NCBI GenBank assembly: GCA_040830765.1
Contig: JBFOMH010000019.1
Span: 143,224-207,223, forward strand
From: Puniceicoccaceae bacterium
GTDB lineage: Bacteria; Verrucomicrobiota; Verrucomicrobiia; Opitutales; Oceanipulchritudinaceae
Direction: 5' to 3'
Length of the DNA: 64,000 nt
Positions 7,787 through 32,000 of the stretch are shown piece by piece (within the stretch, counting starts at the first letter, position 1; each line of letters begins with the position of its first letter). The position numbers and the translations under genes are program-made. The notes below the pieces were generated by a model. It worked only from the letters and a program-made list of their open reading frames with translations. It was not told the origin of the DNA and searched no databases.

Positions 7787-7848
7787 TGAAGGTCACGGAG
7801 AGCTACGCTTAGACCCTGTAAGGTCGCGAACAATACTTTCATATCAGC

Positions 7849-7857: not shown

Positions 7858-7867
7858 GTGGTCAAGA

Positions 7868-7905
7868 ATTTACATTAATACTATCTATTAAAATCGCTAA
7901 TACTT
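7868..7905 (-). promoter_or_regulatory. AT-rich candidate promoter/operator upstream of gene 2
   Basis: Strongly AT-rich patch. Weak sigma70-like TTAGCG-N17-TAATGT on the minus strand overlaps the inverted repeat TTAATA-N5-TATTAA (7875-7891). Confidence 0.3.
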
Positions 7906-7948
7906 AGGGCCTCCGCTTATCCCGACATCGTTGACTTTAGATGAGTCT

Positions 7949-8012
7949 TGGAGGAACCGATACGCCCCTCTTTCGAGGCCTCCAGGCAAGGTGAGCCGGT
8001 TAACCAAACCGG
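7949..8012 (-). other. Stem-loops immediately downstream of the gene 1 stop
   Basis: CCGGTT-N5-AACCGG (7996-8012) and CCTC-GAAA-GAGG (7967-7978), the latter enclosed by TGGAGG/CCTCCA (7979-7984 / 7949-7954). No U-tract. Confidence 0.45.
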
Positions 8013-8013: not shown

Positions 8014-11000
8014 TCAGTCGAGGGAATCGAATCCGAGGATATCCCCGTCACCCTCAATTGAATTAGAATCCTCCTCAATTACGGGGAAGAGGTTGCTGAA
8101 GCTGCCGAGACGGGAATCCAGTGCGAAAAGTGAGCCGGTGAACGAGGTTACGGAGACGGGCTCCAGGGATGCGGACTGGCGGGCAGCAGCCTCTTCTGCA
8201 GAAATAGTCCTTGCGGCAATCATGAAGGAGGGTTGGGGCTCGGCGATCTGTGGCGTGGCTTCCGACTCAGAACTGATGATCTCGGAATCCGGGGCATAAT
8301 GGGTATAAACGAGGGAAACCGGCGTCGGCCCGTCACCGGTTGGCACCGGCTCAGAGCTGGATTCGTAGGCTGGATCATCGGTTTGGAACATCACCGTATC
8401 ATAGGCAGTATCCCCACTGGCCCCGATAAGGCCGTAACCACCATCAGTAACGACCGCATTAAAGGCATGGCCGAGAACCAGCTGGTCCTTCCACATGACA
8501 CTGACCGTGGAGCCCTTGAAGGTAACCTCAATATCCTGCGCACCGCCCTGCATAATCAAGTCATTCTGGAAGGCCGTATCAATGACAATGCCCTTGCCGG
8601 TGCGGTGTCCAATGACGACCTCACCGGTCTCGGTGTTGACGGTGGCAAACTTGTATTGCTTGGGCCCGTAGTAATCGAAGACGAAACCGCCCTCACCGCC
8701 TGTTGTCAGAGTTCCGGCAAGCCGGATTAATGAGGTGTAATCGACGTCCACGCTCATGAGGTTGATAGCCGCATCGGCAATCGCGGTTCCTGAGTAGCTG
8801 CCGTTAGCCAGCACCCAGGCACCTGTTTCAGGAGCATCGAGCAGGTCGGTGAGGGAGGCATCAAAATTATCTGTCTTGGTCAGGGTCAATTCCGGGGCAA
8901 GACGCTGGACAATGACATTGTCGATGGCCGCCTTGGAATTATCCCCACCCAAGCCAACCATGCCTTCATTAAGGGCGTGGCTGATTCCGTATTGATCGAT
9001 GACGACCGGGAAGGTGTGGGTCAGGGAAGTCCGGTTGTTGACAAGAAGCGTGGCAACCGTGCCATTAACCGAGAGGAGAACATTGTAATTGGTATTGGAC
9101 TTCAGGGAACCGGTGTAAACACCTTGGACATCAACGATCCAACCTTCGGCCGTCCGGTGGCCGATTTCCAGCTTGTTGGTTGAGACATTGATACCGGCAA
9201 ACTTGAAATCGAGCTCGCTCTTGTAGTCAAAGACCACGTAGGCATTACTCTTGTAACCGGAGGTTGGCTTTACCGGGCGAAGGACAGCCCGCATCTCGAA
9301 GTAAGTCGGGACATAATCGTTGACAAGGAAGACACTCAGGGCATCCCCACCGCGGAACTCAGGCTCAACATAGTAACTGCCGCTCTGGACACTCCAGACT
9401 CCACTATCGATGAAGAATCCCTGTGCGCTGTTGCCATCGTTGAAGCCGACTGAGCGGAGGACATCCCGCTTGCCGCCCGGGATATTGCCGGCCTGCGGAT
9501 CATCCGGGGCACCGGTCTGTGCCTTCCACCATGGATCCTGTTGCAGGACAAGGCCCAGCTCGCCGTAGGGCTCACCATTGCGCTCAACCTCGGCGGCGAT
9601 ACCGACATCGCCCGGGCGTGTCGGATCTGCGCCATCGCTTTCGGAGAGGTCATAGAGGTAATCTTGCAGTTGCGGCTGCAAAGTGCGGCTGATAGTGGCA
9701 GCGCCAAACGGTGCGAACGGCACGAGATAGCTGTTGAATTCGCCGACCCAGTCGATGAGGCGGTCGCCACCGGTGTTGCCGATGAGGACATCCCGGCCGG
9801 CTCCGCCGTAGGCGATATCCTGGTAACTATAAGCGGTATCCGGTGTATTGTTGCCAATCGGATCGATGACCTTCTTCACCGGCTGGGCAACACTGTCATG
9901 GTCGTCGTCAGCATTGAGCAAGTCATTACCAAATCCACCATAGACGCGGTCCTGACCGGTACCACCGACAATCCAGTCGTTGCCGAGGTCGCCGAAAATA
10001 CGGTCGTTGCCATCCGTGTAGACAGCGGTAGTCGTTTCATCGATAAATCCATACTGCGGACCTTCGGAGGCATAGAAGTTGCCGAAGAACTGGCCGCCGT
10101 TATCGAGGAAGATCTTCCGCAGCGGGTTGTATTCATCATAGGCGGCGAACTCTTCGGCCTTGCGGGCCTCGAAGCCAAGGACGTTACCGGGGTTGTAGGG
10201 CAGCGTGTAATCGGAACGCATCGGGGTGCCGGTGCGATCGCCATCGGGGTCAGTGTACGAGGTAAATTCCTCGAACCAGCCCATGGTGGTTGGGTCGGAT
10301 TCCAGGCCAGGCATCGCTTCGGTACCGGAAATAAAGTCGTCACCGGCTCCACCGTGGAGGGAGTCGTCACCCAGGCCGCCGAAGATGATGTCATCCGCGT
10401 ATTCCGGATCAAAGTTCGGTGTCTGGTCGTTTTCAATGCCACCACCAATGCTGTCGAGGTAGAACGGTGTCAGGTTGACGGTCTTCTTGAGCTCGTAGCG
10501 CTTGTTGATAACGGCTTGCTGCAGGTTACCCGGAGTGGAAATCGGATCGTCAAACTGGTTGTTTTCGAATCCGGCGATTCCAAAGAGTGGCTCACCGGCG
10601 AGAGTATTGCGACTGGTGTAGATACGACCGTCGTCACCGAGGGCACCGTCATTGCCGGTTCCGCCGGAAATCCAGTCATGGCCCCAGCCACCGATGAGGT
10701 TGTCATCGCCGGCCTCACCATAAAGGACATCGTTGCCGACCATGCCGTAGATTTCATCATCACCGGACTCACCGTGGATTTCGTCCCGGGCACCGTTGTC
10801 ACCGCCATCAGTGTTCTCTTCCGGATTATCCGGAACGAGGTCACGACCGCCAGGCGTGTAGTCAACCAGTTCAACCGCCCGCGGAATGAGCTTCAGGTTG
10901 TTATCGTAGCTAGTAAGGACGTCATCGATTTCGTCATCGCCGGCCCAGTTGGTGTTAAAGGTCTCGTTGTCGTAGTTGAAGCTGAGGTAGCCGAGGAAGG

Positions 11001-14000
11001 TCGCAATGTCGCCATCAGCTATGGAGCCATGGCCATCGACATTGGCAATCTCAACGCCGGAATCGGTCGTTACTCCGACCAGGCGATAGATATTGGCATT
11101 GTCACCGGTAATGGTGTCAGCATCGCGGGCGTGGAGGAGATCGCCGTAGGTATTGCGGGCGAGGTCATTGGCATCGGCGTTATCCGGGCCGCCGGCGCCA
11201 CCGAAGATAATATCGGTGCCATCCGGACGCAGGGCTTCGTCGCCTGCAAGGCCGAACATGGTTGAGCTGCCACCAACGATGTCGTCCTGGCCGAGGTTGC
11301 CGAAGATGACATCCTGGCCGCCATTACCCTCGATGTAGTCGTCACCATCGGTGGTCAGTTCGATGGACGGAGAGACGAGAAGCGGCATCAGGGGATCCCA
11401 GGAGAATGGTGTGGAGGAATCCCAAGTACCGATAACAGAGCGTCCTGCGCCCACGTCTGCGAAGAGGTCGGCCGCCGCCTTTTCAACGATCCAGCCATCA
11501 CCATCAAACTCGTGATCGGCCATCCAGCCGTCGCCCTGGAGACGATCATTGCCGAGCTGGCCGAAGATCATGTCGTTGTCCGGACCGCCGGCGATGTAGT
11601 CATTGCCATGGCTGTTCGGATGGGTCGTATTGGCGTGGTCGTAGAGGACGATGTCGCGGGCATCCTTGCCAGTGCCGCTCGGGTTGGACTGGTGGACACC
11701 GGTGACAAGGGCCGCACCGTCGGTGTAGCCGTTATTGGAGTCACCGTAGATAAATGTACTGTCGAGGACGCGCATCCGCGGGTCGGTGGCATCGCCACGG
11801 CGCAAGATGCTGGCATTGTCACCGGCAATGACATCGACATCGCGCTCACCAATAGATTGACCCGGCAGGTTGGGCTGACCCGGCAGGGCGGAGATGCCAC
11901 TGGCACCACCGGCACGGTCGGAACCACCATCGATGCGGTCGTTGCCGTCCTGGCCGAAGGCAACATTGTGACCGCCAATGAGATCGTCACTGTCATTGCC
12001 ACCGTAGATGACATCGTGGCCTTGGCCACCGATGATGATATCTTCGCCATCTTCACCGAAGATGATGTCATCACCGTTTTCAACATAGGTGGAGTAATCC
12101 GGATTGGTGTCGATTTCCGTGTGGGCGTCGATGTCAACAATCTGGGTATCGATGGAGAAGAAGGTGAACGGATCCTGCAGACCGGTAAGGCCGAAGAAGT
12201 CGAGACCAAGGTAGCTGTCACCACCAATGAGCGGCAGGGCCTGTGCGACAACGCCGCCTGCAATGGCACCGTGGTCGACTGCGTCGAGGCGACCATGGTC
12301 ACCGAAGACAAGGTCATTGCCGGCGCCGGAGCGGATTTCGTCATCACCGGTACCGCCGAAGATAAAGTCATAGCCTGCACCGCTCTGGATTTCGTCGTTA
12401 CCGCCGTTGTTCGGGTCAGTGGTGCGGATGCGGTCAATGTCGGAGGCGTTGGTATCGTCGCCGTGGCCGAATCCGGTATCGGAAAGGTAGCTGCGTTCCG
12501 CGGCGGTGTAGTCGATGAATCCATTGTCACCAAGGATGATATTATCGAGGTCGCGCGGATTGCCGCTGGTCGGATTATACGGATCGTAAGCCGACTCGGT
12601 ATCGCGGTCGTAGTTTTCGCCGAAGTTGGCGATGATGTCGTCCTGCCCAAGGCCACCGAAGATGATGTCGTAGCCAAGACCGGTGGTGATGATGTCGTAG
12701 CCACCGAGGGTTGGGCTGATGGTTGTCAGGAGACCCAAGGTGATCGGCTGGGTACCGAACTGCGGCGCATCTTCACCGGCGGCAACGATTTCCGCATTGT
12801 CACCGAAGACAATGTTGTCGCCCTGGCCGGCATTGATGGTGTCACCTTCCGGATTGTCCTCGCCGGAGACGGACTGGGCAACCTTGACGATGCCTTCAAT
12901 GATGACGTCAGTGACGATTTCGCCGTCTTCACCGCCAATGATAATGTCATCGCCGTCACCCGTGGTAATGGTATCGGAACCACCATGGCTCGGGGCGAGG
13001 GTGAAGATACGGTCGATGTCGAACGGATTTGCATCGTCACCCGGCAGCAATCCAGTGGACGGCGTATTGGTGTCGGCATAGAGGCGGCCCTCGTCATCGG
13101 CGGTCCAGTCGATGTAACCGGAGTCCCCGAGGACGATGTTATTGGCGTCCGCGCCGTTGCTATCGGTGTACTCGCCATCATTGGCAGTGATGATGTCGGC
13201 ATCGATACCACCGATGATGATGTCACGGCCAACACCAGAGGTGATTTCGTCGGAGCCACCGATAAGGGACTCAATGCTTTCGACCAGACCAAGGGTCAAC
13301 TCGATGGAACCGAAGCGGTTCAGGTCGGATGCGGCAGCGGTGATCTGGCCATTGTCACCGAAGATGATATTATCACCATGGCCGGCATTGATGATGTCGC
13401 CAGCGTCGTCTCCGTCACCAGCAGCGACAACGTCGCGGTCAAAGTCAGAGGAGATGACCACTCCGTCACCATCCGGGATGGTCGCATCGATGACGTTTTC
13501 GCCATCCTCACCACCGATGATGATATCGGTACCGTCACCCGTGGTGATAGTGTCACTGCCACCATGGTCCGGATTGGTGCTGAAGATGCGGTCGATGTCG
13601 CTGGCATCCGTATCGTCACCGGGAAGCGTGCCTGCCGGATAGGTTTCACCACCAACGCTGTAGGAACGGACGATGTCGGCATCCTCAATGCCGATGCCGT
13701 CTGCAGCGGTCCAGTCAATATAACCGGAGTCGCCAAGAACCACGTTGTTACCATGGCCGGCATCGATGACATCGCCATCGATACCACCAAAGATAAAGTC
13801 ATCACCGTCACCTGTCGTGATAGAATCGGCGCCACCAATGAGGGAATCGAGCGTCTCAGCAAGTCCGACTGTCATGACAACTTCCAGACCGATTGTACTG
13901 GTGCTGGAGAAGAAGCGGTCGGCATCGGAATCTGCAGCCACCACACGGCCATTGTCACCGAATACGATGTTACGGCCGTTACCGGTAACAACGATGTCAC

Positions 14001-17000
14001 CGTCCTCCTCGTCCTGCTGGACGGAACGGGAAATGCGGACCGGGCTGATCCAACCGGCATTAATCATGAACTCGCCGTCTTCACCGGCAAAGATGATATT
14101 GTCGCCGTTACCCACCAGGATCCAATCGTTGCCCCCGACATCAAGGTCAGTCGATTCAGCAACATCTATATCCGTATTGTCACCGTCATGGATGATGTAG
14201 TCGATACGGCCCATATCGCCAAAGACGATATTGTTGCCTTCTCCACCGTCGATGAAGTCGCCGACGAAGGACTGCCCATCGATATCCAGTTCGGTGCCGT
14301 CGTTGACGCCACCAAAGATGAGGTCATCGCCAAGTCCACCAAAGATGATGTCGTTGCCACCAATCAGCGGATATTGGGTAAAGATTTCATCCGGGTTCCT
14401 GACAGTGCTGTCGAGCTTGTCTCCGGGGCCTCCATTACCGAGGACAACAACCGCCACGACGACCTGGACGCCTGCATCCTCGTCGTTGTAGTAGACGACC
14501 TGCCCGCGGTCACCGAAGATGATGTCGTCCGCATCGCCGCCAACAATCTCATCGGAACCCTGGCCACCGAAGATGATCAACGGGAGCGTCGAGGAATAAG
14601 TACCCCACTCGGCATCGCCGGTACCGGAGGCAAAGACATGGTCGTTATCACTGATATCGAGGTAATCGTTCCACGGGCCCTGGGTGTTGAGGACAAAGAA
14701 GCCGTCAGAGACATCGGCTCCACTGTTGTTGTTTTCGGTAGCGTCGAGGTCGATATAAATCCAGTCGTCGCCAAGGCCAGTGTTGAGGCTGGTGATGGTC
14801 CGGATTCCGGCGCGATAATGAGTGCCGTCGATACGAATGGTATCGGCTCCGAAACCGGTCCAGATAGTGATACCCTCGGCAAAGTCATTGCCCGTTCCCG
14901 TGTCAGCCCAGAAGGTGATATTACCCTCGTAAAGGTCGGCCCAGCCAAAGGCATCATCGCCGCCACCGAGGCCGCGGATGACGATTTCCGCATCCGTGGG
15001 CTCGTCGCCAGACGGCTTGTCCGTGATGACGATATTATCGTTATCCAGCGTACTGGCTTCGCCACTGACCATGAGGAGATGGCTGCCCGTACCGGCATCG
15101 ATATTGAGGTCACCATTGATGAAGTGGAGGTGGCCGGTCAGGAAGTCGATATTGCTGTCTTGGGTTTCGTCAGCGGTTGAGGAAATGTAGATTCGCTCGT
15201 CACCGTCTCCGAGGAAGAGGTTTGTTTCGGCAGTTGTGCCACGGATATTGAGGACATCATCACCGGAACCGAAGCCGATGTTGAGCTCATCGATGAAGTA
15301 GTAGTTAATGCCATCAATCCGGGTCAGGTAGGTTGCAGCATGGGCCTCGACATCATCGTCCGTGCGCTCGTTGGTCGAATCCGGTGTGTCGCTGATGTCG
15401 TCGAGGACATAGAAGCGGGTCGTGAAGACATTTCCGGCGATGTTCTCGATGGTCAGGACGCCGTTCAGGCTGCTGGCGCGGAATTCCGGCAGGCCCCATT
15501 CGTTGATCAGGTCGGCCAGCTTGCGGGCGACCGATGCATGGGTGTCACCGGCTTCGGCGATCACCTTGAAGGTCAGGACGCCCGCTGCGCCAGTCGTTGT
15601 GGAAACGGCATCCAGACTGGTGGCGGTATCCAATGTAACAGTGATGTCCAGGCTGTAGACGCTCTCAAGGGTCACCTGCCAGACTTCACCAGCTTCCGGC
15701 TGACCGGCCGCCTCGATGGTGGTGGTGGCGGAGAAGAGCGTGCCGTCGGTGCGGCTGATGAGGACCACGTATCCTTCAACGGCGACGGAGTAGTCATTAC
15801 CGGTGCCGTTCAGGCCGTTCAGGTCTTCGGCCAGCTCGGCGGCGATGATTTCCAATGTATCATCAGCGAGGACGGTGTAGCTGAAGGTGTGGGAGGTGAT
15901 GCCATCGGTGACGGTAATGCTCCAGACTTCGTCGATTGCCGGTGTGCCCAGCAGGGTGACACTGGATTCCGTCGGCGTGGTGCGGTCAATTTCCACCTTG
16001 CTGAGGTCCGCCTCGGTGCTGCCGTAGTAAACCTCGGTTGAGAAGAGGTCGCCGTTGCGGTGGAAGATGACGAGCTTTCCGCCATCACCGACAGCCGTGA
16101 AGATGTCAGGACCGTTTTCATTGATCTCTTCGGCGAAGGCGGCGGCCAGTCCGGCGTAGGAGGCCGTGTCATCAACTGCCACTGTAAAGGTATGGGTAAT
16201 GCCACGGATGGTGATTGTCAGGGTCCACATCGAGTTGAGATCGAACGGCTTACCACCGGCAATAAAGTCAACCAAAGTGGCACGCGGGATGCGGATATCC
16301 GTGATGCCTTCACCTTCTGTTCCACCCAGGGTGACTTCTGTTACCAGAGCCTCGTATTCATCGGCGCCGGCGGAATTCTCCTCGGTAGTGAGACCGCTGG
16401 CGTCGAGGTCATGGATGGTCAGGTCCCGGTGCTCGCCCTGGAAGGTGATGATGAAGGTGCGCTCACCGACCTTGCGGATGGCGAAGTTGTCCGTGTAGGG
16501 CTTCCAAGTTGTACGGGTGGCAAAGTCAAACTCCGGATCAATGTCGATTGTCGAACCATTCGGGTTGAGGATCGGGCTGATGGCCTTGTAGAGGTCGAGG
16601 GCGGAGGCGTTGTAGTCGATCAGGCCGGTGGTGAAGAGCTCAAATTCGCCGAGCTCGTTTTCGATCCGGAAGGTCAGGGTGAAGGAACCACCGGTTACAT
16701 TCGGATTAATGGTAATGACCTGGATATTGTTGATACCTTCATTGACGGTCGATCCGTCGCGGATAGTGCTGATCTCGACCGCCACGGAGGCGTTTTCATC
16801 CGGCACCAGCCCGGTCGTCTCGGTGTTTTCGGCCCACTGGATTTGCTGCTGGTCAATGCCAGCCATGTCGCCGACGAATGTGATGGTGTAGGTGACACTG
16901 CCGTTAGCGAAGGAGGCAGTGACATCGATATCCTCGGTGGCATAGAGGGCGCGCAGGCGTTCAGCCATTGCTTCAGCAGTGATACCGTAATCGATACGGA

Positions 17001-20000
17001 CTTCCGCCCAGCCTTCGCCACGGACGACATCCCCTGCCTCGAGGCGGGTTTCGAAAATGCCACCCTCGCGATCGATGACAATCAAGCGCTCGCCAACAGC
17101 AATGGCAGTGTAACGGGCATTGGCATCATCGAGTGGATCTCCACTCAGGGTCACGGAGAGTCCTTCACCTTCGTTTATCTGTCTGGCGAACTCGATAACC
17201 AAGTCCACGAGTGATTCCGCCGTAGTGGCATTCGTGGTGATTTCGTAATACAGCTCACCGATGCGCAGGCGCCACAGTTCATCCGTCTGCGGGGTACCGA
17301 CAAAGTCAACCAGTGTGGTTGTGGCGGTCCCACCATCAATGTCGGCGCTGGCCACCGGAGCCAATGAGGTGTAGGCGGTGAGGAAGCGGCCCGTCGTATC
17401 GGCGATAACCAGATTGTCACCGGAGATGGAGGCAATTACACCAACCAGGGCCAGATCGCCCTCGGCGACTGAGAGATTGATGAGGTCGGCAAATCCCTGG
17501 GCAATGTCAGAAGCACTGTCCGCGGCAGTGACCTCGAGGAAGAACTCAAAGTTGTTGCTGCCAACTGAGAGGTGCAGGATCCATGTAGAGCCGGTGACCG
17601 GAGTGCCGGTAATGGTCACCTCGATGGGCTCAAGACCGGTATTGATGATGCCAGCACCTGCCGGACGGAAGGCTGGCAGGACTTCACCGTCGGATGTGAA
17701 GTCGGCACCTGTCCGGTTGACGATGTAAAGGTTAATGCCATTGGCGAGGGCCGTGAAGGTACCCGTGAGGTCGGAGTTGATGACCTCAGCAAGGGCGTCG
17801 ATCAAGTCATCAAAGGCGTCGAAGTCCACAATGGTCTCATCGATTTCGAAGCCGTACTCTACCCCGTCAAGGGTCACAATGAAGGTTTCGCCATTCGTGA
17901 AGTCTCCAGCGGCGGTGAACTTGCTCGTCGGTGCATCGCCAGTGATGGCTCCAGAGCCGGCGATGGTTCCGTCAGGCAGTCCGACTTCAAAGGCGACCTC
18001 AAGGCTGCGTCCGGCCGGGTCGACGATGTAGAGGGTTTCCCCGTCAGCAATGGCGGTGAATCCGGCCTGCGTATCGAGGCTGATCAGGGCAGCCAGGGCG
18101 CCGGTGATAGTTGCCAGGGAATCCTGGTTGCCGGCAATCTTGTAGCCGTAGGCAAAAGCGCTTTCCCCGGAGATTATACGGATGTACCAGGTCTGGTCGA
18201 CAAAGCGGGTGCCGTCGAGGTTGACCACGGCAGCGGACGGAGTCGTGGCGTCGATTTCGACGGTGGCCGTCGGGTAGACTTCGAAGGCAGCCGTAATGCT
18301 GGTCGTACCATCGCGAACGATGACCAGGGAATCACCATCCATGAAGGCAGTGTATTCACCTGTGACACCGGCATTGATCTTGGCAGCGAGGGAAGCTCCT
18401 ATTTCGGCAGCAGTCTCAAGAATGCCATCGACAAGTGCCACTGTGTGGCGGAAGACCGCACCATCAAGAACAACCTCCCATGCCTCGCCTTCAACCGGTG
18501 TGGTCGTCGAGGTGATGATCACTTCTGAGGTTGTATCGTCGTAAACGAGGGAATTGCGCGGGGTAATGCTGCTGGTGTCCATTCCATCATCCGGCATAAA
18601 TGTGCCGGTGAGCGGGACGATGAGGACCGAGCTACCTGCGGCAATAGCTGTAAAGGCAACCTCAACACTGGTAGTCACGGAAACATCAATTGCGGCGGCA
18701 CCAGCCGGGCGGCGGGTTGTAGTGGTGGAGTCGAGGATCGGATCATCCGAGGTCACGAGGAGATCGGCACCATCTGCTTCCACCTTGAATGGCGTTCCAA
18801 TGACGGCGTTGAGGGCGGCGGCAAGACCGTCAGCAACATCAATCATGCTGGCCGTGGTAGCGAGGAAGGAGGCAGTGGCCTCGAAGCCGGCCGAACTCAG
18901 CGTCACGGTCCAGGTTTCATCGATGGCTGGAGTGTCGCCGAAGACAATCCGGATAGTTGTGCGGGACTGGATTTGCGTCGCCAGTTTGTCAGCAATGACC
19001 GCTGTATCCTCAAGGACATAGCTGTAGGACTCGCCACCAACCGTGATGGTCCAGGTCTCGCCAATGGTCGCTGTGCCGTCGAGAGTCACCTCGGTCACTG
19101 CATCAGAGAGCACCGTGATGGCATAGCTACCGGCGGAACCGGCGGATGGCGTAATGGAGAAGGTGGTCACGAACCCGTCTGCGGCCAGTTCTTCAATCTC
19201 GAGGATGACCTCACCACCAACAAGCTTGGCCGAGGCAATAAAGTTACTGCTGCCGACATTGATCCGGTCCGCCAGGCCTTCAGCGATTTCGAGGAGCGGA
19301 ACGTTTTCTCGAACCACGTAATCGTAGGGATCCTCGTTGGAATCGAGGTGGATGGTCCAGGTCTCGCCAGCGGCGGCAGTTCCACCGAAGGAGATTTGCG
19401 TCGACACGATAACGGCCGACACGGTGCCTTCGTTGACAGTGGTCGGGATAGAGTAGACGGCCGAGGAGGCAGAGGTGCCAATAATGACCAATGTGTCACC
19501 ACGGGCAGCGGCTTGGTATTCACCACGGGCGTTAATCAGGTCCGCAATACCAGTCGCCACGTCGGCGAGGCTGTCCTCAGCCATGACGGTGTAGTCGTAG
19601 TTGTACGTACCCAAGGCTGTGTCATCCATAGCGACGCGCCAGACCTCGTTCTCGACCGGCGTACCGGTGAGGATCGCCACGGAACGATCCGCTGCCGTTG
19701 TGGAATCCACACCAAGCGGCGCATCCGGAGCGGCCCGGGAAAGACTGAAGGTGACGAGGAAGGCCTCCGCATGGGAAATGGTCAGGCTTTCGCCAGTTGC
19801 CACAACGGTGAAGCCGTCATCATTATGGACAGCCGTCTCGATTTCGGTAGCAAGGGTGGCCAGGGAAGTGCTGCCGATGGTGAAGTCGTAGCTGTTTACA
19901 GTCGCCCCGCGGGTCAGGACGAGCGTCCAGATATCGTCAATCACTGCCGGGCCGATGATATCGAGTGCGGCCTGGTTGACATTCACTTCAACGTCAAATC

Positions 20001-23000
20001 CACCAACCGGGGTGATTTCCATCTTCGAATTGAATGTCACCCCACCCTTGTTGATGACAAGAAGGTCGTCGCCGTTGGCGATGGCCAGGAAGTTGGCCGA
20101 AGCAAGGCTGTTGATGACTTCTGCGAGGCCGGCGGCGATATCTGCCAAGGTGGCATCGTCTACATCAACCGTATACTCGAAGCGGGTAATGATATCCTCG
20201 CCGGAAATATTCCGTGTCAGCAGGACGGCCCAGGTATCGCCTTCGTTGACGACCGTAGCCCCGGCATCACTCAGGGTCATTGCCGTGCTGGAGGAGACCT
20301 CCGTCTTGGTGTAGGTGCCGTTGGCGTCAAGATCAGTGATGGAAATGGCGGATGGTGCAGTGATGAAGATCCGGTCACCAGAGGCAATGGCCGAGTAGCC
20401 AACGAAATTATCACTGATGTAAAATGCGAGGCCGGCGGCCACCGACTCAAGGATTTCGGCGAGGATTTCTGGTGCAGTTGTGCCGTCGGTCAGAAGGTCA
20501 TCGGCAGTCACCGTGTAAAGGACGTCGCTTCCGTTGATCTGGAAGTTCCACAGTTCGGCGAGGGAGATAGTGCCATCCTCACTGGCAATGGTCACCGTGG
20601 CTGGATAGGTGCGGCTGATATCGTTATAAACCTGGACATTGATCACCGGGGTGGCATCGAAGGTGGTGCCGACAGTGCTGAGGATTATCGAATCGCCATC
20701 GGCGAGGGCAGCGTAGTCGGCGCTGTCGGCATTGACCAAGGCAGCAATGGCTTCGGCCAGATCGGCCTTGTTCATGCCATCAGTCACGGTAACCGGGAAG
20801 GAGACCGGGCCGGAGGAGCTTGTTTCAAACTCGAGGGTCCAGATTTCACCCGCCACCGGTGTACCCACGAGGTCAATGACGTGGGCTTCCGAGTTATCGG
20901 TCGCCGATTCCGTACCGCTGGTGGTGGAACCGTCACTGATGGAAATGCTGGCCTCGATGGCTGCAGAATCGAAAGTTTCGTCCGCACTGGTGACAAAGAG
21001 CTGGTTCCCGACGGCCGAGGCCGCGAAGTCAGGACCGTTATTGAGGGTCCAGGCAAACCAGGTGGCCAATGCCTCGGCAGAGTCAATCAGGATATCCACA
21101 GTTCCCATTGTCTGGGTGGTACCGATGACAACCGAGAGCGCGACTGTAGTGGGCTCTGTGGTAACGATATCAACTTCCCATGTCGAACCGTCAATCGGCA
21201 CTCCGTTGAAAGTCAGGGTGATGGAGTCCGCGGTGGTATTGATATCCCCGGCCGAACCCGCGCGGGCGATGGTAGCGGACGTGTCGAGCACTTCACTACC
21301 GCTGGAGACGATAGCCAGACCGTTACCAGCGGCATTGACGCTGGCGGCAAATTCACCGGTGGCATTGATCTTGAAGGCCAGTGCCTCGACAAAGTCGGCA
21401 AGTGTCTGGACGATCGTTCCATCGACATCCTCGTCGTAATCAACCTCGACCATGTAGGTTGTGTTAAGGTCGATGGACCAGGTCTCACCCGGCTGAGGAA
21501 GTCCCGCGAAGGTGGCGACAACGGCATCGGAAGCGGTAACGCTCGCCGTGGCACCGAAGCGGGTGACGACGACAGACGGATCCAGGCCGGCGCCCGTAAT
21601 GGTGATGTCACTACTTGCTGCGGTGGCCGTGATGGCCGGGCCAAGGGAATCGGTGACCTTCCAGGCCAGGGCGGTAGCGATCTCTTCCAATGTATCAACT
21701 TCCACGCTGTCGACTGTTTCCCCGAAGGTGACACTGACAAAGTCGGTATCATTGAGGTTCAGGGTCCAGATATCCAAGGCGCGCGGAGCGGCTGAAGCGG
21801 AGGTATCGAGGCTGATTTCGGCATCGGTGCCGGACACGGAAGTAACCGTTCCACCACTGGATGGAATCTCGATGCTGAAGCGGGCATTCACATCGGTACC
21901 AGTAGTGCTGAAGATGGAGAGGATGTTTCCGGAAAGGACCGTGCTCAGGCCAGCGACACCATCAACGGAGTCAGCCAGTGCGTTCGCCAGGGACTCGAGG
22001 GTATCTCCCTCGGCAACCGTAATGGAGTGCAGGACGGACTCTGTGGTTTCATTCTGGCCCTCGAACCATGTCTTGAGAATCCAGGTATTACCCGGTTGTG
22101 GCACACCGGCAAGAGTCAGGACCACGGCATCCCCGCTGGCCTGCTCGGTAAAGGTGCCTTCAACATCTGTCTGCAGGGCGATCCAGGAACTGGTGACGAA
22201 CGGTTCGGCGGCCCGGTCGACGATAAAGAGCGTATTCCCGTCAACAAAGGCAACGAAGGTGGCAAGACCATCGGTGTTGTTGATCATGTGGGCGAAGATT
22301 TCGGCAATGGTGGCGGGGCTGTTCGCATCCACGGTGTAATCCGGATCATCCTCCGTAAACGGATCGTATGTATCACCGGCCAGAATCTGGAACTCGAAGG
22401 ATCCTTCAACAGTGGTCAGGCGGATGGCCCAGGTGTCACCAGTGACAACCGTTCCATCAAGGAAGAGCTTGGTTACTTCTGCCTCGGAACCAGCAGTGAC
22501 AAGGTTGCCGGCCGGCAGAACGGAGGCTTCCGCAGTAAAGGCCACGTCGTTGTCGAGTGTCAGGACATTGGCCAAGGCATCTGCCGTAAAGCTATCAAAG
22601 ACCGGATCCAGATCGCCGAGAAGAAGTAGTTTTTCACCGAGCTTGGCAGCCACCATGTCGAGCGTGTCACCCTCGAGGACCTTGTAAGATACCGCTGTCA
22701 CGGCTGCACCCTCCTGCACGCGGAGGAGCCAGGTTTGCCCGGCAACTGCGGTTCCGTTGAGGGTCAGGTCGATTCCGTAGGTAGTACCGGAGGAAGCACT
22801 GGAGGCCGAGCCGTCCGTGGAATTGGTGGTCTGGAGGTTGAAGGAAGCACTGGTGGCACTGGCGATGACCATGCTGTTACCGGTCGCTGCAGCGGCAAAG
22901 TCACCAAGGACATTGATGTCACCGGCGAGGATGGCGACGATTTCAGCAACCGACTGCGCCACCTCGGCGGTATCCGGATCGGCATCATGGTCCACACCGA

Positions 23001-26000
23001 GGATGGTGTGGCTGACCGTGGTCGAGCCGTCGAGGACGATTGACCAGATATCACCGATTGCGGGTGTACCACCGAGCGTGAGGGAAATGGAGTTGAAGGT
23101 CTGCTGGGTGAAGATGCTGCCCACCGGCTCAACCTCAACACCCGTGACAAAGGCGTTTACGGAGTTTTCAAGGGTCAGCTCATTGCCGATGGCCTCGGCG
23201 CTGAAGGCGGAGATAAAGGTGTCTGCCGAGCTGGTGATGGCCAGTTCGAAGGCAGCGGCAATGGCAGCAAGGTCGTCACCTGCCTGGACAGTGTACTCAA
23301 TGGTCTTGATGGTGGTGAGGACCTGCAGGCGGAGGACCCAGGTCTGACCTTCAATAACCGGACCGAGCAGGGTCAGGGTAGCGAGTGTTGAGTAACCGGT
23401 GGCGTTGTTGTCAGCATAGCCATTGGTGTCCACTCCCGCCTTGACCGATAATGGAGTCGGCAGGTTGCTGGCTATGAGGATAGTGTCACCGGAGGCACTG
23501 GCGGTAAAGCCGGCCAATGCTTCAACTTCGGCTGCCAGCGCGGCCGCGATGGTGGCGATACTGTCCGGTGTTCCGGAACCGGCATCAAGGATGGTGTAAC
23601 GGACAGTGACGGAGTTATTGAGCGTCAGGGTCCAGACATCACCAATGACCGGGTCACCTCCAAGGCGGAAGTTGACCGCATTGCCGGCCTCCGGCTGAAC
23701 GGTGATGGTGCCACCGGTTCCAGCGCTGTCGGCGAGCTGGATTTCCAGCGAAATTTCCGGAGCGGCGGCGCCAGCCATGACATTGATGACGATAAGGGTG
23801 TTGCCGACCGCAATAGCCACCTTGCCCGGTTCATTGGCATTGATCTCAGCCGCGATGAAGGCGGCGATGTCAGCCAAGGTGGTAGTCGTCGTAACTGGGA
23901 AGCTGCTTAAGAAGGTATCGATGGTGAAGTCCCACTGGTCTCCATCAACCGGTGTGCCGGTGAGGACGATGGAGGAAGTGGCGCCATCAACCAGGTCGAA
24001 TGTACCTTCCGGTGCCTGGACCGGACTGGTGACACTGAAGGAAACCAGGTAAGCGGCTCCGGATTCGCTGACGATGATGAGCACGTCACCCAGTGAGGTG
24101 GCGGTAAAGTCATCGTTAGCGTTGATGAGTCCGGCAAGGTATTCGGCGATTTCGGATACTGAGGTAAGAACGCCGCTGCCGGTATCTTCACCCACCGTGT
24201 AGAAGAAGGCCGGGAGATCATCGATAACGACATTCCAGGTATCTCCGTCGATCAGGTTGCCACTGAGACGGACCATGGTAGTGGTTGCGGTCTCAGAATC
24301 GATGGTCGGGTCGGTGATCCGAACCTTGTAAGTACCCGTGGCGGCCTGGACGAAGATTGTCTGGATTTCAGAAATGGACGGCATGCCCAGACCGGTCAGG
24401 GATTCACCGGTCAAAATTCCGGTGCTGTTGCCGCTTTCACCGCGGTCGTCGAGGTAGAGGACATCTTCATCCGTGTCGTCACCACCGATAATGACCAACA
24501 GGGCGCGGACCGTGTCGAGTTGTGAGTCATCATTGCCATCAACGGATTCCGTGGTGGTGGTGAAGCCAAAGACATTGGGCAGGGCCTTGCTGCCGACATA
24601 GAAGGTGTCTGCTCCGGTCTGGCCGTCGATGATGGTGTGGCCGTCGATGGACTCAACGATAAGGCTGTCATCACCGGCACCGAGGTAGATGTTGGTCGCG
24701 CCGGCGTGGGTCGACTTCACGGTGAAGTTGTCGTTACCGGTTCCAAGATAGATATTCAGGACCTCAAGGTCGCGGTACTCGATACCGGCCGGCAAGGTGC
24801 GACCAGCGATGACCGTTTCAGGCGCCATGCCCATGCCGGTCAGTTGATCCGCCGTCAGGATAGCGACATTATCGGCCGGGCTGTTGTTGTGATAGACCGT
24901 CATGGTATCGACCTGGTCCGCCTCATCGACACGTGTGTTCAGGTTGACCGGGCGGTAGAAGTACTCATCTCCCGGACGCGGTTCATTGAACTCACGGATT
25001 TCGATAATGGAGACGGTTCCGACAGGCGTGATCTGGACGGAGGTATCGAATTCCTGGGCCTCGAGATTGACGATGGCAACCTGGTTGCCAATCGCCACGG
25101 CAGTGAAGGTAACCACACCGAAGGCACGGACATGGGCAGCCAGGGCGTTCGCTACATCCTCGATCGTGTCACCTTCCTGGACCACATAGGAATGGGTGGT
25201 GGAGAAGGTTCCATCGTTGAGGAAGATGGACCAGACTTCACCGGCGAAGACCGTGTTGGTCCCGGGAACGGTGTTGGCATCGGCAAAACCACTCAGGGTC
25301 ACGACCGAACCAACGCCGTCAACGGAGCTCGAGGCCGCGTTTTCAAGGCTGAAGCTGATACCGGCACGGTTGACAACGGTGAGTTTTCCGTCGGCAACGA
25401 AGGCGGTGAATTCCTCGTCAGCCGCGACATTGATGCTGGCTGCCAAGGCAGTCAGGATAGCATCCGCTGTTTCCCCATCTGCGGCGACATAGGTGTGGAC
25501 GCTGGTTTGTTCACCGATTCTCAGTAAAGTGGTGTAGAGCTGTGTCAGTCCTCCTGTCAGGGCGACTGGAGTTGCAATCTGTCCAGTCTGGGCAGTTGGG
25601 ATGACAAGGGATTCCGTGATGCGGATATCCGGTTCGAAAGTGGCCTCACCAGAGGACTTGATGGTGTACTCAGGCTCAGTCGGTTCGGTAAAGTCAGTCC
25701 CGTCGGTATTGATGATAATGAGGACCTTGCCCTCGGCATAGGCCGCATGGCTGTCGGCACCGGAATTAATGGCTTCAGCGAGGGCTTGGGCGATATCGAA
25801 GGTCGTGTCGCCGGCCAGGACGGTGTAATTATAGTCCTTGGTTGTCGCCTCACCGGGCAGGGTCACTTGCCAGACATCATCCACAACCGGCAATCCGGCA
25901 AGGATGGCACTGCGGACCGGTGCATTGGCATCGTCAACGGTAACCGCGTAATTGCCACTGCCATCGTCGGTGCTGGCTGCAGTCGACGCAGGAGCGATGG

Positions 26001-29000
26001 TGACCTCGGCAATGAAGCCATCACCGGAAGCACGAACAATAACAAGGCTGTCCCCTTCCACCATCGCGGTTAAGAAGTCCGGGCTTTCAGCAAGGGTGCT
26101 GCCATTGATCTCGTCAGCAAGGTTCTGGGCCACGTCTTCCAGGTTGTCACCCGCAATCACCGTGTAGGTGAATGACGTTGCCGAGCCTGTCTTGACCCCG
26201 AATGCATCAACATCCCAGATACTGACAGTCCACTCTTCGAAGGCCAGCGGTGTTCCGGTAAACTTGATCGAAGCTGCCGGCAACTGCGGATTGATGTCGC
26301 TGAGGTCGTCCGTGTTTTCCTCGGCGGGCAGGATCCGAACCTCGACACTGAAGCTGGAAGTGGCATTGGCGATAACGAGGGCATTGCCATTGGAGATGGC
26401 GTACAGGTCACCACCGGTTATCAACTCAGCAAAGACAGCGGCAACGGAGTCCCAATTATCAGCCACGACTTCCTCACCATCAACCAGGTAGGTCTCGCCG
26501 ATGGATACGCGGAAGAAGGAGCTGCCGTCGATGCGGACCGTCCACAGTTCACGCGGCTGGACGAAGTCAGTGAAGGTCACGGTGGCGGCACGCGAGGTCA
26601 GGCCATCCGTGGAGGCCGGAGCGCTGGCCCCGGAGTCGATGGACAATGTGGCGGACAAGTCAGCACCATCGCGATCGACAATGACCAGTTTGGCATCGCG
26701 GTAGCCAGCTGTGAGGGAAGCTGCGCCGGTCGAATTGATTTCAGCGGCAAGTTCCTCGGCGATGTCACTAAAGGTGTCGCCAGGCTGGATGACATAGGAG
26801 AAGTCAACCGGCGTACCGTCATCCAGGCTCAGGGCCAGGGTCCAGGTGTCGCCGTCGGTTGGCGTGCTCTGGAATTCGATGGAAAGGCTGGTCGGGGCCG
26901 GACTGGCGGGGACGGGTTCGTAGCCACTGATAGTGCCGATGGAGAATGACGGCGTAAAGGCTGCACCGGTCCGGTTGACGAGTATGAGGTCGTCGCCGTC
27001 AACCAGGGCGGTGTAGTTCTCAACGGCAACCCGTGCGTCGCTGTTGATAAGGGCGGCCAGTCCAGTTGCGGCTTCCGCAACCGAGGAGATTGTGGTTCCA
27101 TCAATTTCAACACTCCAGGAAAGGCTGCCAATGGATACGGTCCAGATTTCATCAACGACAACTGGTCCGGTGAGATCAATCTCGGCAGTGTAGGTTGAAT
27201 TATTGACCGTGTAGGCGCGGGCTGCGGTAACGGAAGATTCAACCACCAGTGGTTCACCAATTACGTTGACCACACCAAGCAGCACTCCCTCGCTGATTGC
27301 TACATAATCCCCGCCGGCGGTATTAATGGCGTTGGCCAGTTCGCTGGCGATATCGCTGAGGGAGTCGCCCTCAAGGACCGTGTAAGTGAAGGCTGCACCA
27401 ACGCCAGGCAGGGTTATGGACCAGATTTCATCGACAACAGCAACACCGGTGATTTCGACGGTGTTGGTAGTCGCTGTGGAGGCATCGATACCAACAATGG
27501 TTGCCGGCAGGACATCCACGTCGACGGAGAAGGCTGCCCCACCCGTCCGGAATACCTCGATCGTATCCCCAACGAGCGTTGCTGTGTAGGGGCCAGCGGT
27601 ATCGGCGTTGATCAAGTCCACAAGACCCGTGAGGATGTCCGTGAGACTGGTGCCTGCGGATTCAAAGGCGTAGGTCGAAGTCGTGGAACCGGAAGTAAGC
27701 TGGATGACCCACTGCTCGTCGGCAATCATGCCGGTCGCGGCGGTGAAGTCCACAGTGGCCTTGCTGGCTATGGTCTCACTGCGGAGGGCCGTTCCGGCAG
27801 CAACCGTCTCGAGGGCCAGCGTAAAGGCATCATCGGCCCGGTTGAGGATGTAGAGCTTGGAACCGTCATAAAGGGCGGTGAAGTTGGAGGCATCCGGATC
27901 GGTGGAATTGTTGAGTTCATAACCCAGCATCATCGCCACCTGCTCGGCGGTATCATCCGCATCCGCCGTGTAATCAACAAGGATGTGCTCACCGTTGATG
28001 CTGATATCGATCGAGAATACTTCCCCTTCGCGGACTGGCGTTCCGACATCGACTTGTGCGGATTGCATCGGCAGACCGGTGTCGGTGAGCGCGCCGGCCG
28101 GCAAGACGTCATAAGCAATACTGCTGACCCGGGTGGAGCGGTTGACGATGTAAATCATGTCACCTTCCGGCATGGCAGTAAATTCGGACTGACCTTGGGC
28201 ATTGATCGCGACTGCGAGGCCTGCAGCGACGGCAGCGAGGTCATCACCCGGCTGGACAGCATACTTCACCAGGATGGTGGTTTCGTTGGCACCCGTTCCA
28301 ATGGTCAGTTCGGCGGTCCAGATTTCTCCTTCAACGAGGGATGTTGCAGTGGAAAGCGTGTTGGAATTGGCCGTCGCGGCAACCGCTCCGGCTGTGATCG
28401 CGCCATCAAGACTTCCGGCCACCGGTGTAATGCTGAAGCTGGAGGTGAAAGCGGTATCCGTCCGGTTGACAATAACCAGGATGGAACCATCACCGAAGGC
28501 CGTGTAATCGGCGAGGGTTGCGTTGGCATTGATGAGGTCCGCCAGATTGTCGGCAATATTATCCCGTGTATCAACCAGCTCGACACGGTAACTGACAGTC
28601 GTTCCGTCGACAGTGGCCTTCCAGACTTCACCAGCCTTTGGCGTGCCGGAGAGGATGGCGGTGGCAACGGAGGTGATGGCCGTACCGGTCATGCTGCTCC
28701 ATGCGCTGGTCGAGGCGGTCAGCGGAACGAAGGCGGTTACGAGCGAGGAACCGTCCGGACCGGCAATGATAACCCGTGGTCCGGATTCGACTGCGGCAAA
28801 TCCATCAACAACGGTATTGATCTTGGCCGCGAGGATACGGGCGATGTTACCAAGCGAGCTGGCCACGACATCGGTTGTCCCGATAGTAAAGGTTTCGCCG
28901 ACGGTAACCTCGAAGATCAAATCGCCGCTACCGGCATTGTCATTGAGTGTCACTCTCCAGATGTCACCCGTCACGGCTGAGCCGGAGAGCTGAACCATGA

Positions 29001-32000
29001 AGGTGGCCGGATCATCGAGGGATTCCGTCAGGCTGGAGGCTGCCTCAACAGTAAGATCCGGGGCGGTGAACGCGGTTCCATCCCGCTTCACGACTACCAG
29101 GGAGGCGATCAGGGATGGGTCAGTGGAAAGGATCCTTGAAGAGGCACTGAAGTCGCCGAGACTGCCGTGGGTGCGGATTCCTTCAGCAAGGGCTTCAGCC
29201 ACGTCAGCCAGCGTTTCATCAACCCCAACTACATGGAAGACGTCCGTGCCGTTGACATTGATGGTCCAGGTCTCACCGACTTGGGCAGTTCCGTTGAGCA
29301 CGTAGGTGTAGGCGGTGACGTTGCCGTTCTGCGTCGTCGAGGCATTGTCGGCAGCGGCCGGGGAGACCACGATACTAGTCACGAAACTGTCAGCGGTACG
29401 CTTGACGATGTAAAGGGTGCCATCGGCAGTGACCGCATTGAATTCAGACAGGTTGCCATTGCCGTTGATCTGATCTGCGAACCATTGGGCGATTCCCGGG
29501 AAGGTGTTGGTGACACCATCAACGGTCAGTGAGAAGGGCTCTCCGGCAACGGTCAGGTCGAAGGTCTCGCCAACGACTATGTCGCCATCCACAAGGACAC
29601 CGTCCACCAGGGTCTTGCCGAAGGTCACGGTCGTGGTACGGGCGGTGACGGTATCGACATCACCATAACTGCCGATTTCAAAGGCGTTTCCAAGACGGTT
29701 GACGATTACCAGCAGGTTGCCATCGGCTGCTGCGGTGTAGTCGCCCAGCGAGCCATTGCTGTTGAGGAGGGCTGCCAGGCCAGCTGCGATGGCGCTCGAG
29801 CTCAGGGTGCCGCCGCTGGTGTTTTCAAATTCAATTTCCGTTCCCAGGCCATCCTCGACTATTACCAGGCTCCAGAATCCACCCGCCACAAGGTCATCGA
29901 CGATAGTCACGACAGCAGAGGAAGCGGAAGTGGTGTCAACGACCGCGCCGGATGCCGGTGTCACTGACAGGCTGAGATTGACGCTGCCACCACGCGTGTT
30001 GACAACGATGAGGAGGTCACCTTCCGCACTGGCAACGAGGTTTACGGAATCGTCCGTGGCGTCCGCATTAATGGCCTCGGCGAGGGCAGTCGCGACGTCG
30101 GAAAGGGTCGATGCAACCGTAATGCTATGGCTGACTTCGAGATTACCAATGGTCGCCGTCCAGGTTTCACCGATGGCCGGTTCACCGACAAGGGTAATGA
30201 TGCTCGTACGGCCAATCGTTGTTCCGATGGAACCGGAGTCCGCGTCGAAGCTGGCCGTAAAGGCACCATAGGTACGCTTGATGAGGACAATTGCATCACC
30301 ATCAGCAACAGCAGTGAAGTCGGCACCAAGGATATTGGAAATGGACTGTGCCAGCGAGGAGGCGATATCCTCGAGGGTGTCTCCCGCTTCGATGATGTGG
30401 GAGACACGGCGCACTTGGCCGTCGAAGTCGAGTTGGATGCCCCAGTCGTCACCGACCACCGGCGATCCGGTCAAAGTCATGACCGTGGAGGATGCGGTTC
30501 CGCTGATGCCGTCGTCCTGGTCGAGGGCGAAAGCGCCTGCGAGGGTGAAACGGTAACCGGCCTGATGGACAACAACCAACTGGGCGCCATCCGCGATAGC
30601 GGCATAATCGGCCGGGGCGAAAGCGTTGATGAGTGCTGCCAGGGTTTCGGCCAACTCGGCCCCGGACTGGGCGGAATCACCGGACTGCTGCACCACATGG
30701 GTAAGGACATGGGAGAGTCCATCACCAACAAGGGTAATCGTGATCAGCTGTCCGACAGGCAGGTCATCCGACAAGGTGGAGATACGGATAAACGGATCAA
30801 CACCGTCGGCAAGGACACCTGCCGGCAGGATGTTGATACCCGGCGTAAAGGCCACATTGTCGCGATTGAGGATGTAGAGCTTTTCTGCCACTGAGAGGGC
30901 ACTGTACTGGGCAAGGCCGTCCCCGTTGACCGTAATGGCCAGCTTGGCGACCACATCCTCGAGCGTTTCGAGTGTCTTCAGGGTATCCGGATTGTTATCG
31001 GCATCGACCAGCTGGACAATGTAGGAGACGAGACTGTCGAGATTGCCACCCTCAATTTCCAGGGCGAAGACTTCGCCCGCAACCGGAATGCCACTGAAGG
31101 TGCCGCGCTGGACTGCGCTTTCCATGGCGGTCATATCCGGGGCAAAATCACCTGTCCGGCTGCCAGCGACGGTTGTCACGGTAGCCTCGACGGAGAAGGC
31201 CAGGCCATCCTCATTGACGATGAGGAGATTCGACCCATCCGCGAGGGAGACAAAGCCGGCATCTGTTGCGTCGAAAGAGGTGTTGATATGGCGGGCCAGC
31301 TTGCGGGCAATGGCATTGCGGGTATCACCCGGGAGGACTGCGACCGCATGGGTGCTGACGGTCGAGCTGGAGCCATCGTCAACAAGCTCGATAAGCCAGA
31401 TTTCATCCACTGTCGGGGCCCCTTCAAAGAGTACCGAATAACCGGTCGCTGCCGTATCCAGTCCCCAGATAGTCGAGGTTTCAGTGAAGGGATCAAAGAC
31501 CGTGCTGGTCGTGAAAGTGGTGTCACTGTGGACGATGATGAGCTTGGCGCCTTCACTGGTGGCAAGATATGGAGCGGCAGCGTTGGCATTGATGTCGGCT
31601 GCCAGGATGGAAGCGATGACCTCAAGGGATTCCACTGTGTAGCTGAAGGTCGTGCCATCAACGACGACAGACCAGGTTTCCCCAATACGGGCCGTACCGG
31701 TAAATTCGACGCGGGTCACATTCGGGGAAGCGGTCCTCGGAATCATCTCACCATCGGTCTCGAGAATCGGCAGGATCTGCGAACCAGTGCTGAAGCCGGG
31801 GGCGACCTCGGTTTCGATAACCAGCACATTGCCCTGGACGCGGGCGGTGAAGTCACCGAGGACGGCGTTGATCTTCGCAGCCAGGCCACTTGCCACTTCC
31901 GCCAGCGGTACCGTCTCGCGGACAGTGTGGGAGTGGATTGATTCAACGTCCCCACCGAGGGCAGAGTCGTAGTAGCTCAGCTCGACGGTCCAGATGTCAC

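Follow-up and report, generated by a model that had tools for sequence, protein, structure and literature searches.

A giant predicted protein encoded in the 64,000-nucleotide window (the whole stretch of DNA that was analysed) contains a small domain, dom1, whose two parts stand on either side of a long array of repeats. This arrangement raises the question whether the two parts come together in the folded protein. Beads on a string is the customary picture of a giant repeat protein. Should the two parts rejoin, it would follow that an entire repeat array can form a closed loop held by a single small domain, which would alter the shape, reach and mechanics predicted for such proteins and the annotation of their domains.

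Host protein and position of the split domain

The ORF concerned (8014..63999, minus strand) runs for 55,986 bases without a stop codon and specifies at least 18,661 amino acids; its 5' end is open and the contig stops at the end of the window. As judged from its domain content, it encodes a giant extracellular-type protein with calcium-binding RTX repeats. Nine stretches of RTX nonapeptides of the beta-roll type (PF00353) were found, all within the last 2,829 amino acids, the best of them at 9916..10017 (minus strand; E 3.9e-42 for the piece). The first 4,333 amino acids of the truncated ORF, whose true N-terminus lies beyond the contig end, matched no Pfam family. For the type I secretion ABC transporter model TIGR01842, the best match in the organism's own genome scored 238 bits versus a cut-off of 510, and none of 14 control genomes passed either.

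Read in the direction of the protein (minus strand throughout), the region of interest starts with an array of 25 modules, termed IN modules (24982..32346, residues 10552-13006), which is followed by a beta-helix-like unit (24394..24981, residues 13007-13202) that ends in LTGLGM. Next come the N-terminal piece of dom1 (24316..24393, residues 13203-13228), which consists of GLGMPSIS and the hairpin EIQTIFVQAATGTYKVRI, the inserted array of 24 diverged IN modules of about 100 amino acids each (17008..24315, residues 13229-15664, approximately 2,436 amino acids) and the C-terminal body of dom1 with a conserved tail and linker (16747..17007, residues 15665-15751). An intact paralogous neighbour, dom2, follows directly (16426..16734, residues 15756-15858), and dom2 is joined to the RIDGINYY beta-helix/RTX region by three more IN modules in line (15352..16287). 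The upstream array of 25 modules is likewise in line. Its nesting in a split domain of its own was considered and rejected, as the corresponding site is contiguous in P0038 and P0072, where a short proline-rich linker is found.

An earlier reading of the sequence had proposed that a single domain is interrupted by the array, and all of the strings on which it relied were located on the minus strand of this one ORF. EIQTIFVQAATGTYKVRI occupies residues 13211-13228 (24316-24369), RIDYGITAE...YTITFVG residues 15668-15710 (about 16870-16998), and NIQVITIN...FIITFQG, from the intact neighbour, residues 15758-15855 (16435-16728). A module HMM placed 24 modules between the halves, the approximate number given in that reading. 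The proposed likeness of the hairpin to the start of dom2 held in part: the string is present, but the 18-residue pairwise match is not significant by BLASTP, and a 36-amino-acid N-terminal piece gave no alignment to dom2 at E <= 100. The significance of the split comes instead from a dom1 profile, an HMM built from nine uninterrupted dom1 copies of other organisms. Across all 18,661 amino acids, its matches were limited to two complementary pieces about 2,420 residues apart: profile positions 1-42 matched residues 13203-13244 (E 2e-10) and positions 43-130 matched residues 15665-15751 (E 1e-27). Together with contiguous homologues, these matches bear out the proposal of an interrupted domain. 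A short first section is thus followed by the insert and then by the bulk of the domain, the same kind of discontinuity as in the split domains of RTX adhesins. The insertion point is the loop after the first beta-hairpin of dom1.

Occupancy of the insertion loop and conservation of the hairpin

Homologues with an empty insertion site, which had been named as a check on the proposal, were sought in a census of 101 sequences (78 proteins that match dom2 at E <= 0.001, 16 related loci, the present protein, L016 and five others). The census yielded 15 contiguous dom1 copies in 13 sequences versus 13 split copies. One split copy carried an unrelated 59-amino-acid insert that is not of the IN type (P0079), two carried four modules (P0014 and L033), and the remaining ten, with the present protein counted, carried 19 (L020), 21 (L021), 23 (L027), 24 (the present protein and L026) or 25 modules (L022-L025 and L034). 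With contents that range from 0 amino acids to 25 modules at one position, the loop evidently tolerates inserts of widely differing size. The hairpin was kept in all 12 module-bearing sequences that cover the whole region, and four further fragments showed the hairpin followed by modules before the sequence stops. In the homologues, dom1 is invariably preceded by a beta-helix-like unit. The dom1/dom2 family also occurs as tandem contiguous copies in G696 and G457.

That the split results from misassembly or gene decay is practically negligible as an explanation. The assembly is indeed a draft in 40 contigs and the ORF runs off the end of one of them, but the frame is free of stop codons over its full length and the same split, with the hairpin retained, recurs in 10 independent public genome records and in P0014. 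A search of the inserted array for tandem repeats at the DNA level found none that could mislead an assembler, and identity of the array modules to the first aligned module is 18-35%.

Conservation was compared among nine module-bearing homologues (36 pairs; L023, L024 and L034 were left out as near-copies of L022). Mean identity was highest in the hairpin (66.7%), followed by dom2 (59.5%), the linker (55.9%), the beta-helix tail (46.6%), the last and first IN modules (44.7 and 44.5%) and the C-half window (41.8%). For the hairpin, pN/pS was 0.38 (27 codons, 11 sequences, 55 pairs), a value that is only moderately low and for which pS is near saturation. In the six pairs formed by the close relatives L022, L023, L024 and L034, the hairpin showed 37 synonymous differences and no nonsynonymous ones. 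These codon comparisons show purifying selection on the orphan hairpin, whose conserved and variable positions are the same as in contiguous homologues.

The hairpin could also be conserved on account of another partner, for instance the first module or the beta-helix unit before it. On such a reading, which is rather unlikely, the split would be an evolutionary scar: the hairpin would cap the beta-helix or pack on the first module, the C-terminal body would fold alone or borrow strands from the last module, and the protein would stay a string of beads. Alignments by MAFFT, which put N-termini of modules onto the hairpin, fit this reading: as far as sequence pattern goes, the strands can stand in for one another. 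Against it, the hairpin is the best-conserved segment and retains the position pattern of contiguous homologues. Moreover, an LTGMGM motif at residue 13053 of the beta-helix-like unit runs directly into beta-helix sequence without a hairpin after it, so the motif is not always in need of one. The first and last modules are both HMM-complete and equally conserved, with the last one, directly before the C-half, covering HMM positions 2-98; no second hairpin adjoins the C-half.

Folds of the halves and possible ways of joining them

Both dom1 and dom2 belong to one unnamed family of small domains, probably of alpha/beta fold, with the pattern EVQ..V.A..GTY.L....LDY...A..L..LYG....V....VTYT.TF. 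Neither dom1, dom2 nor the modules had a significant match in Pfam, NCBIfam or PHROGs, PDB sequence searches with dom1 and dom2 found no relative, and Foldseek against the PDB gave no match at E <= 0.001. Since dom1, dom2 and the modules lack a Pfam family, split domains of this kind are missed by homology-based tools. The dom2 model resembled domains of the mycobacteriophage Bxb1 tail tip and capsid and of phage Patience (9d93_Ma, Z 7.3, 29% identity; 9d9w_Aa, Z 6.3, 24%; 8giu_1, Z 6.9, 26%). On the basis of this model, no solved structure comes closer to the dom1/dom2 family than these phage domains. The Bxb1 and Patience entries report no split form, whereas dom1 is split here.

An AlphaFold2 model was made of residues 15556-15862, which comprise the last module, the C-half, the linker and dom2, with the hairpin left out. 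The intact dom2 was modelled with a pLDDT of 74-91 and the C-half with 77-83, while the strongly conserved linker after the C-half appeared disordered (pLDDT about 32). In VIA-align, model residues 112-166 stood by themselves as a small alpha/beta unit (Z 4.1), and the C-half alone matched small alpha/beta units only, at the same Z. That the C-half was modelled at this pLDDT without the hairpin, and as a unit of its own, is consistent with an evolutionary scar, as the body may not need the hairpin; alternatively, AlphaFold2 may have completed a pattern. The MAFFT mix-ups had further suggested that the IN modules, dom1 and dom2 make up one fold family. This idea was rejected because hhalign gave the module profile a probability of only 0.8% against dom1 and 0.5% against dom2, and because the fold neighbours of modules and domains differ. 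The same hhalign values speak against a body that is completed by strands from a module.

The favoured reading, with a probability of about 0.65, is that hairpin and body rejoin as one domain and that the array forms a closed side loop, in the manner of the split domains of RTX adhesins; it draws on the sequence comparisons described above and on analogy. Residues 13211-13228, the hairpin, would pack with residues 15665-15710 of the body as a single domain, and the array of 24 modules would hang off the main chain as a closed side loop, outside the load-bearing string. The loop or branch geometry would follow from physical rejoining of the halves, and both steps are conditional. A rough estimate, which treats the array as 24 freely jointed segments, each about 4 nm long, suggests that closure is feasible: the two ends would lie about 20 nm apart (root mean square), at an effective concentration in the tens of micromolar. 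Fold-back of the array into a hairpin, enabled by an even number of modules, was rejected, as counts of 19, 21, 23 and 25 occur. With both odd and even counts among the homologues (4, 19, 21, 23, 24 and 25), no fixed fold-back geometry would apply and closure would rely on flexibility.

The hairpin of one protein could also complete the body of another by domain swapping or donor-strand complementation, which would give chains or a mesh. The separation of the halves by approximately 2,436 residues would fit such an arrangement, and the estimated concentration within one molecule need not exceed the local level on a crowded surface. Contiguous homologues argue against it, as they indicate that the ancestral domain was an ordinary intramolecular one, as does the far closer spacing of the halves in the four-module forms. 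Complementation between molecules is given a small chance.

A further and quite improbable reading is that the split domain acts as a mechanical clasp. Tension would then pass through the non-covalent joint of hairpin and body, and the loop would be shielded until the clasp opens. Opening would release some 2,400 residues of folded reserve length, analogous to a sacrificial bond with hidden length; the variable number of modules (4 to 25) would tune this reserve, and in a variant of the scheme swapping of the joint between molecules would knit proteins into a mesh. A clasp of this type, if true, would be a hidden-length device of a size for which no precedent is described among bacterial surface proteins. 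Independently of its mechanics, the homologues with 0, 4 or 19-25 modules at this loop offer natural constructs with which limits to the separation of domain halves can be tested.

IN modules and comparison with split domains of RTX adhesins

The module HMM matched the present protein 65 times. At two places one IN module is split by another, an arrangement also found once in P0014. The first nest (18544..19098, minus strand) lies inside the inserted array and consists of an outer N-terminal part (18961-19098, HMM 7-59), a complete inner module (18667-18966) and an outer C-terminal part (18544-18660, HMM 62-96). The second (39826..40407, minus strand) consists of residues 7865-7928 (HMM 3-64), a complete module at residues 7930-8025 and residues 8022-8058 (HMM 64-99), the match of this last part being weak (E 0.008). 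A scripted search of betaproteobacterial loci for such nests returned only the P0014 case at the threshold used. Spacings of 64 and 123 amino acids were seen in those loci and are no more than a hint of nesting.

None of 21 modules matched the Pfam family Flagellin_IN (PF07196) at E <= 10, and the sole link to this flagellin hook IN motif was a lead from a language model (rank 30, score 0.89, 22% of cluster members). The module profile did match the tail sheath of phage PhiTE (9cb9_A, E 4.2e-5 over query positions 6-85). The structural model of an IN module matched 8i4m_A (Z 10.4, rmsd 2.1, 86 aligned residues), 8kee_A (Z 9.6) and 9cb9_A (Z 7.9), and further 4nx9_A (Z 7.2) and FliD (Z 5-6). 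In sequence profile and in fold the IN modules therefore resemble outer domains of phage tail sheaths; this is a statement of similarity and not of common descent. Such outer or insertion domains, in the sheath and nozzle proteins of phage tails as in flagellin and FliD, are themselves surface-exposed insertions. Those proteins carry one or few such domains each, in contrast to the 65 module matches in the present protein.

Split domains that project other domain units are known from the RTX adhesins AhLap of Aeromonas hydrophila, FrhA of Vibrio cholerae and MpIBP, in which a short first section is followed by an insert and then by the bulk of the domain (PMC12077191, PMC10865825, bioRxiv 10.1101/2025.09.30.679566). 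The adhesins and the present protein have in common a small structural domain that is discontinuous in sequence, a giant host with RTX repeats, and domain-in-domain nesting more than once per protein. They differ in the first section, which is one strand in the adhesins described and one hairpin here, and in the host domain, which is Ig-like, beta-roll, vWFA or CBM in the adhesins and here a small domain, probably alpha/beta, from the unnamed family. Reassembly of the adhesin domains is described from crystal structures and AlphaFold models, whereas that of dom1 is a proposal from sequence. The largest difference concerns the insert: a single globular ligand-binding domain of about 17-30 kDa with its termini side by side in the adhesins described, but 24 tandem modules (approximately 2,436 amino acids) here. 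Most likely, by analogy and from the sequence evidence, the present protein extends the known split-domain design from one binding domain to a whole repeat array.

The giant frame and its interrupted domain

Nearly the whole window is occupied by a single minus-strand open reading frame (8014..63999; 18,661 aa without a stop codon), in which residue i is encoded by window bases 64000-3i to 64002-3i. Its 5' end is open and the N-terminus of the protein is missing because the contig stops at the window end. An 8,813-aa frame lies directly downstream (window 2..7786 is part of it), and GC content was 0.50-0.54 in this neighbour (window 1-8000) and 0.56-0.59 in the giant frame (8000-64000). In the 4.0-Mb genome, 14 open frames reach or exceed 2,000 aa, among them this neighbour and one encoding 15,026 aa.

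The sequence-only reading had proposed that a small domain (dom1) is split by a repeat array and has an intact neighbour (dom2). The strings quoted for the dom1 hairpin (EIQTIFVQAATGTYKVRI, residues 13211-13228), the dom1 C-half (RIDYG...YTITFVG, residues 15668-15710) and dom2 (NIQVITIN...FIITFQG, residues 15758-15855) were all located as quoted on the minus strand. The claimed match of the hairpin to dom2 did not hold pairwise: BLASTP of the 36-aa N-terminal piece against dom2 gave no alignment at E ≤ 100, so that, as a pairwise match, the split was not beyond chance. It did hold via a profile. A full-library search with dom2 retrieved 78 proteins at E ≤ 0.001, many of which carried an uninterrupted dom1 copy directly upstream of dom2 and directly after the motif LTGLDM. 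A dom1 profile built from nine contiguous copies in relatives matched the giant protein exactly twice, in a complementary manner, with profile positions 1-42 at residues 13203-13244 (E 2e-10) and positions 43-130 at residues 15665-15751 (E 1e-27), both on the minus strand. The break point is the loop behind the first beta-hairpin, a loop of ~6 (genome G665) to ~26 residues (library homologue P0035) in contiguous homologues. At the sequence level, interruption of one small domain by ~2,436 residues of modules can be considered secure.

An iterative HMM built from the ~100-aa repeats (IN modules) yielded 65 matches, all at residues 7757-16216 of the giant frame, to which these modules were confined among the 14 long frames of the genome. 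Minus-strand runs comprised 25 modules at residues 10552-13006, 24 modules at residues 13234-15671, between both dom1 pieces and in agreement with the ~24 originally estimated, and three modules after dom2. The modules are old and diverged, sharing 18-35% identity with the leading module of an alignment of 21 of them; Tandem Repeats Finder reported nothing over 16 kb of module DNA. At residues 14968-15152 (window 18544-19098, minus strand), a complete IN module sits inside another one, which it interrupts behind the helix, giving an N-part (HMM ~3-64), a full module and a C-part (HMM ~62-99) in succession. The same split recurs at residues 7865-8058 (window 39826-40407, minus strand), and homologue P0014 likewise holds one such nest. 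Nesting is a habit of the giant protein. In the betaproteobacterial loci, the spacing of modules hints at conservation of the first nest.

Occupancy of the insertion loop in homologues

Scanning one genome from each species yielded 16 loci, each taken with flanks of 10 kb. Ten, from Sulfuritalea, Rhodocyclales, Burkholderiales and other betaproteobacterial MAGs, showed the same split with the hairpin kept and 4, 19, 21, 23, 24 or 25 intervening modules; one (L031, a Verrucomicrobiales MAG) had a contiguous dom1, and five, cut off on their upstream side, were uninformative. Homologues with an empty insertion site were also sought in a census of 101 sequences scored at domain E ≤ 1e-4, and were found as 15 contiguous dom1 copies in 13 sequences. 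The census further contained 13 split copies, four fragments with hairpin and modules whose sequence ends early, and 14 rows with the C-half only; the remaining sequences fell into none of these dom1 classes at that threshold. Among the split copies, P0079 carried an unrelated 59-aa insert, P0014 and locus L033 four modules each, and the other ten, including the giant protein, 19-25 modules. It is likewise secure at the sequence level that many relatives have nothing at this loop and that some carry other inserts there. By eye, the P0079 insert (residues 650-708, ~59 aa, non-IN) looks like a small beta-barrel domain found in line in L016.

In seven of the 14 C-half-only rows a module lay directly upstream, and all seven were truncated upstream. 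No module-bearing, hairpin-less sequence spanning the region occurred in the census, and 12/12 retained the hairpin.

A contiguous query matched four of 401 sampled genomes of the own phylum, and matched the giant protein solely from the C-half onward. In own-phylum relatives with the same gene context (G263 and G665; G338 left out) dom1 was contiguous; G696 and G457 carried tandem contiguous copies of the wider domain family. In locus L004 (G013:C63), from the same taxonomic family, one uninterrupted domain sits between the motifs LTGLGM and RTDGINYY, with neither a dom1/dom2 pair nor IN modules. The nearest relatives of the region were betaproteobacterial MAGs (Sulfuritalea, Rhodocyclales, Burkholderiales; 57-63% identity, among loci L019-L034), which, together with the rarity of the gene in the sampled own class (3/401 genomes) and phylum (4/401), hints at gene transfer between phyla.

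Conservation and predicted structure of the domain pieces

Across nine module-bearing homologues (36 pairs; L023, L024 and L034 excluded as near-copies of L022), mean pairwise identity was 66.7% for the hairpin, 59.5% for dom2, 46.6% for the beta-helix tail, 44.7% and 44.5% for the last and first module, and 41.8% for the C-half window. Hairpin codons showed pS 0.41 and pN 0.16 (27 codons, 11 sequences, 55 pairs), and the close relatives L022, L023, L024 and L034 showed 37 synonymous versus 0 nonsynonymous hairpin differences in six mutually non-independent pairs. Conserved and variable hairpin positions were identical in split and contiguous copies. The linker after dom1 (AGID..QIxWxE..TGLVP...ASVxVxIxTxRDG, residues ~15707-15751, window 16747-16880, minus strand) was among the best-conserved stretches (55.9%), and was nonetheless modelled as disordered (pLDDT ~32).

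This AlphaFold2 model covered residues 15556-15862, from which the hairpin is absent (21-row alignment, mean pLDDT 72.9). Confidence was ~70-86 for the last module, 74-91 for dom2 and, despite the missing hairpin, 77-83 for the dom1 C-half. The latter value keeps alive the main rival explanation, in which the dom1 body folds without the hairpin and the hairpin is retained for another contact.

With VIA-align, the IN module resembled outer domains of phage nozzle and sheath proteins (8i4m_A, Z 10.4; 8kee_A, Z 9.6; 9cb9_A, Z 7.9), modules of GbpA (Z 8.6) and CbpD (Z 8.3), and flagellin and FliD (Z 5-7), and the module profile matched the PhiTE sheath sequence (E 4.2e-5). The dom2 model resembled a domain found in structural proteins of mycobacteriophage Bxb1 and phage Patience (VIA-align Z 6.3-7.3 at 24-29% identity). 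Foldseek gave no match at E ≤ 0.001 against the PDB and seven against a viral library, one bearing the name tail fibre protein and the others uncharacterised or unnamed phage proteins. No relation of the module profile to dom1 or dom2 was found with hhalign.

Comparison with split domains of RTX adhesins

Among mechanisms, a split domain of the RTX-adhesin type has the best support, with reassembly as its inferred step. In this mechanism, the hairpin would leave dom1, the 24-module array would follow, and the returning chain would complete dom1 with the C-half. A rough polymer estimate, assuming 24 freely jointed 4-nm segments, puts the array ends at an effective concentration of tens of micromolar, which makes closure plausible.

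RTX repeats occur in the giant protein. No type I secretion ABC protein scored above the family cut-off in its genome, as was also the case in control genomes; for this reason, and because the N-terminus is missing, the protein is not filed as an RTX adhesin. The proposal, limited to the array-bearing part, is that this part would work like RTX-adhesin split-domain units. In these units, according to passages of PMC12077191, PMC10865825 and bioRxiv 10.1101/2025.09.30.679566, a short opening section exits, the projected domain takes up its fold, and the chain then comes back to finish the host domain; the inserts described in these passages are single domains only. A literature search on split domains in adhesins returned, besides these three, just PMC12970687 and an unrelated protein-ligase paper; a whole-array insert may still be in print. 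Compared with RTX adhesins as portrayed in those passages, the split domain of the giant protein has a different host fold, and its cargo is a chain of 24 modules rather than one globular binding domain.
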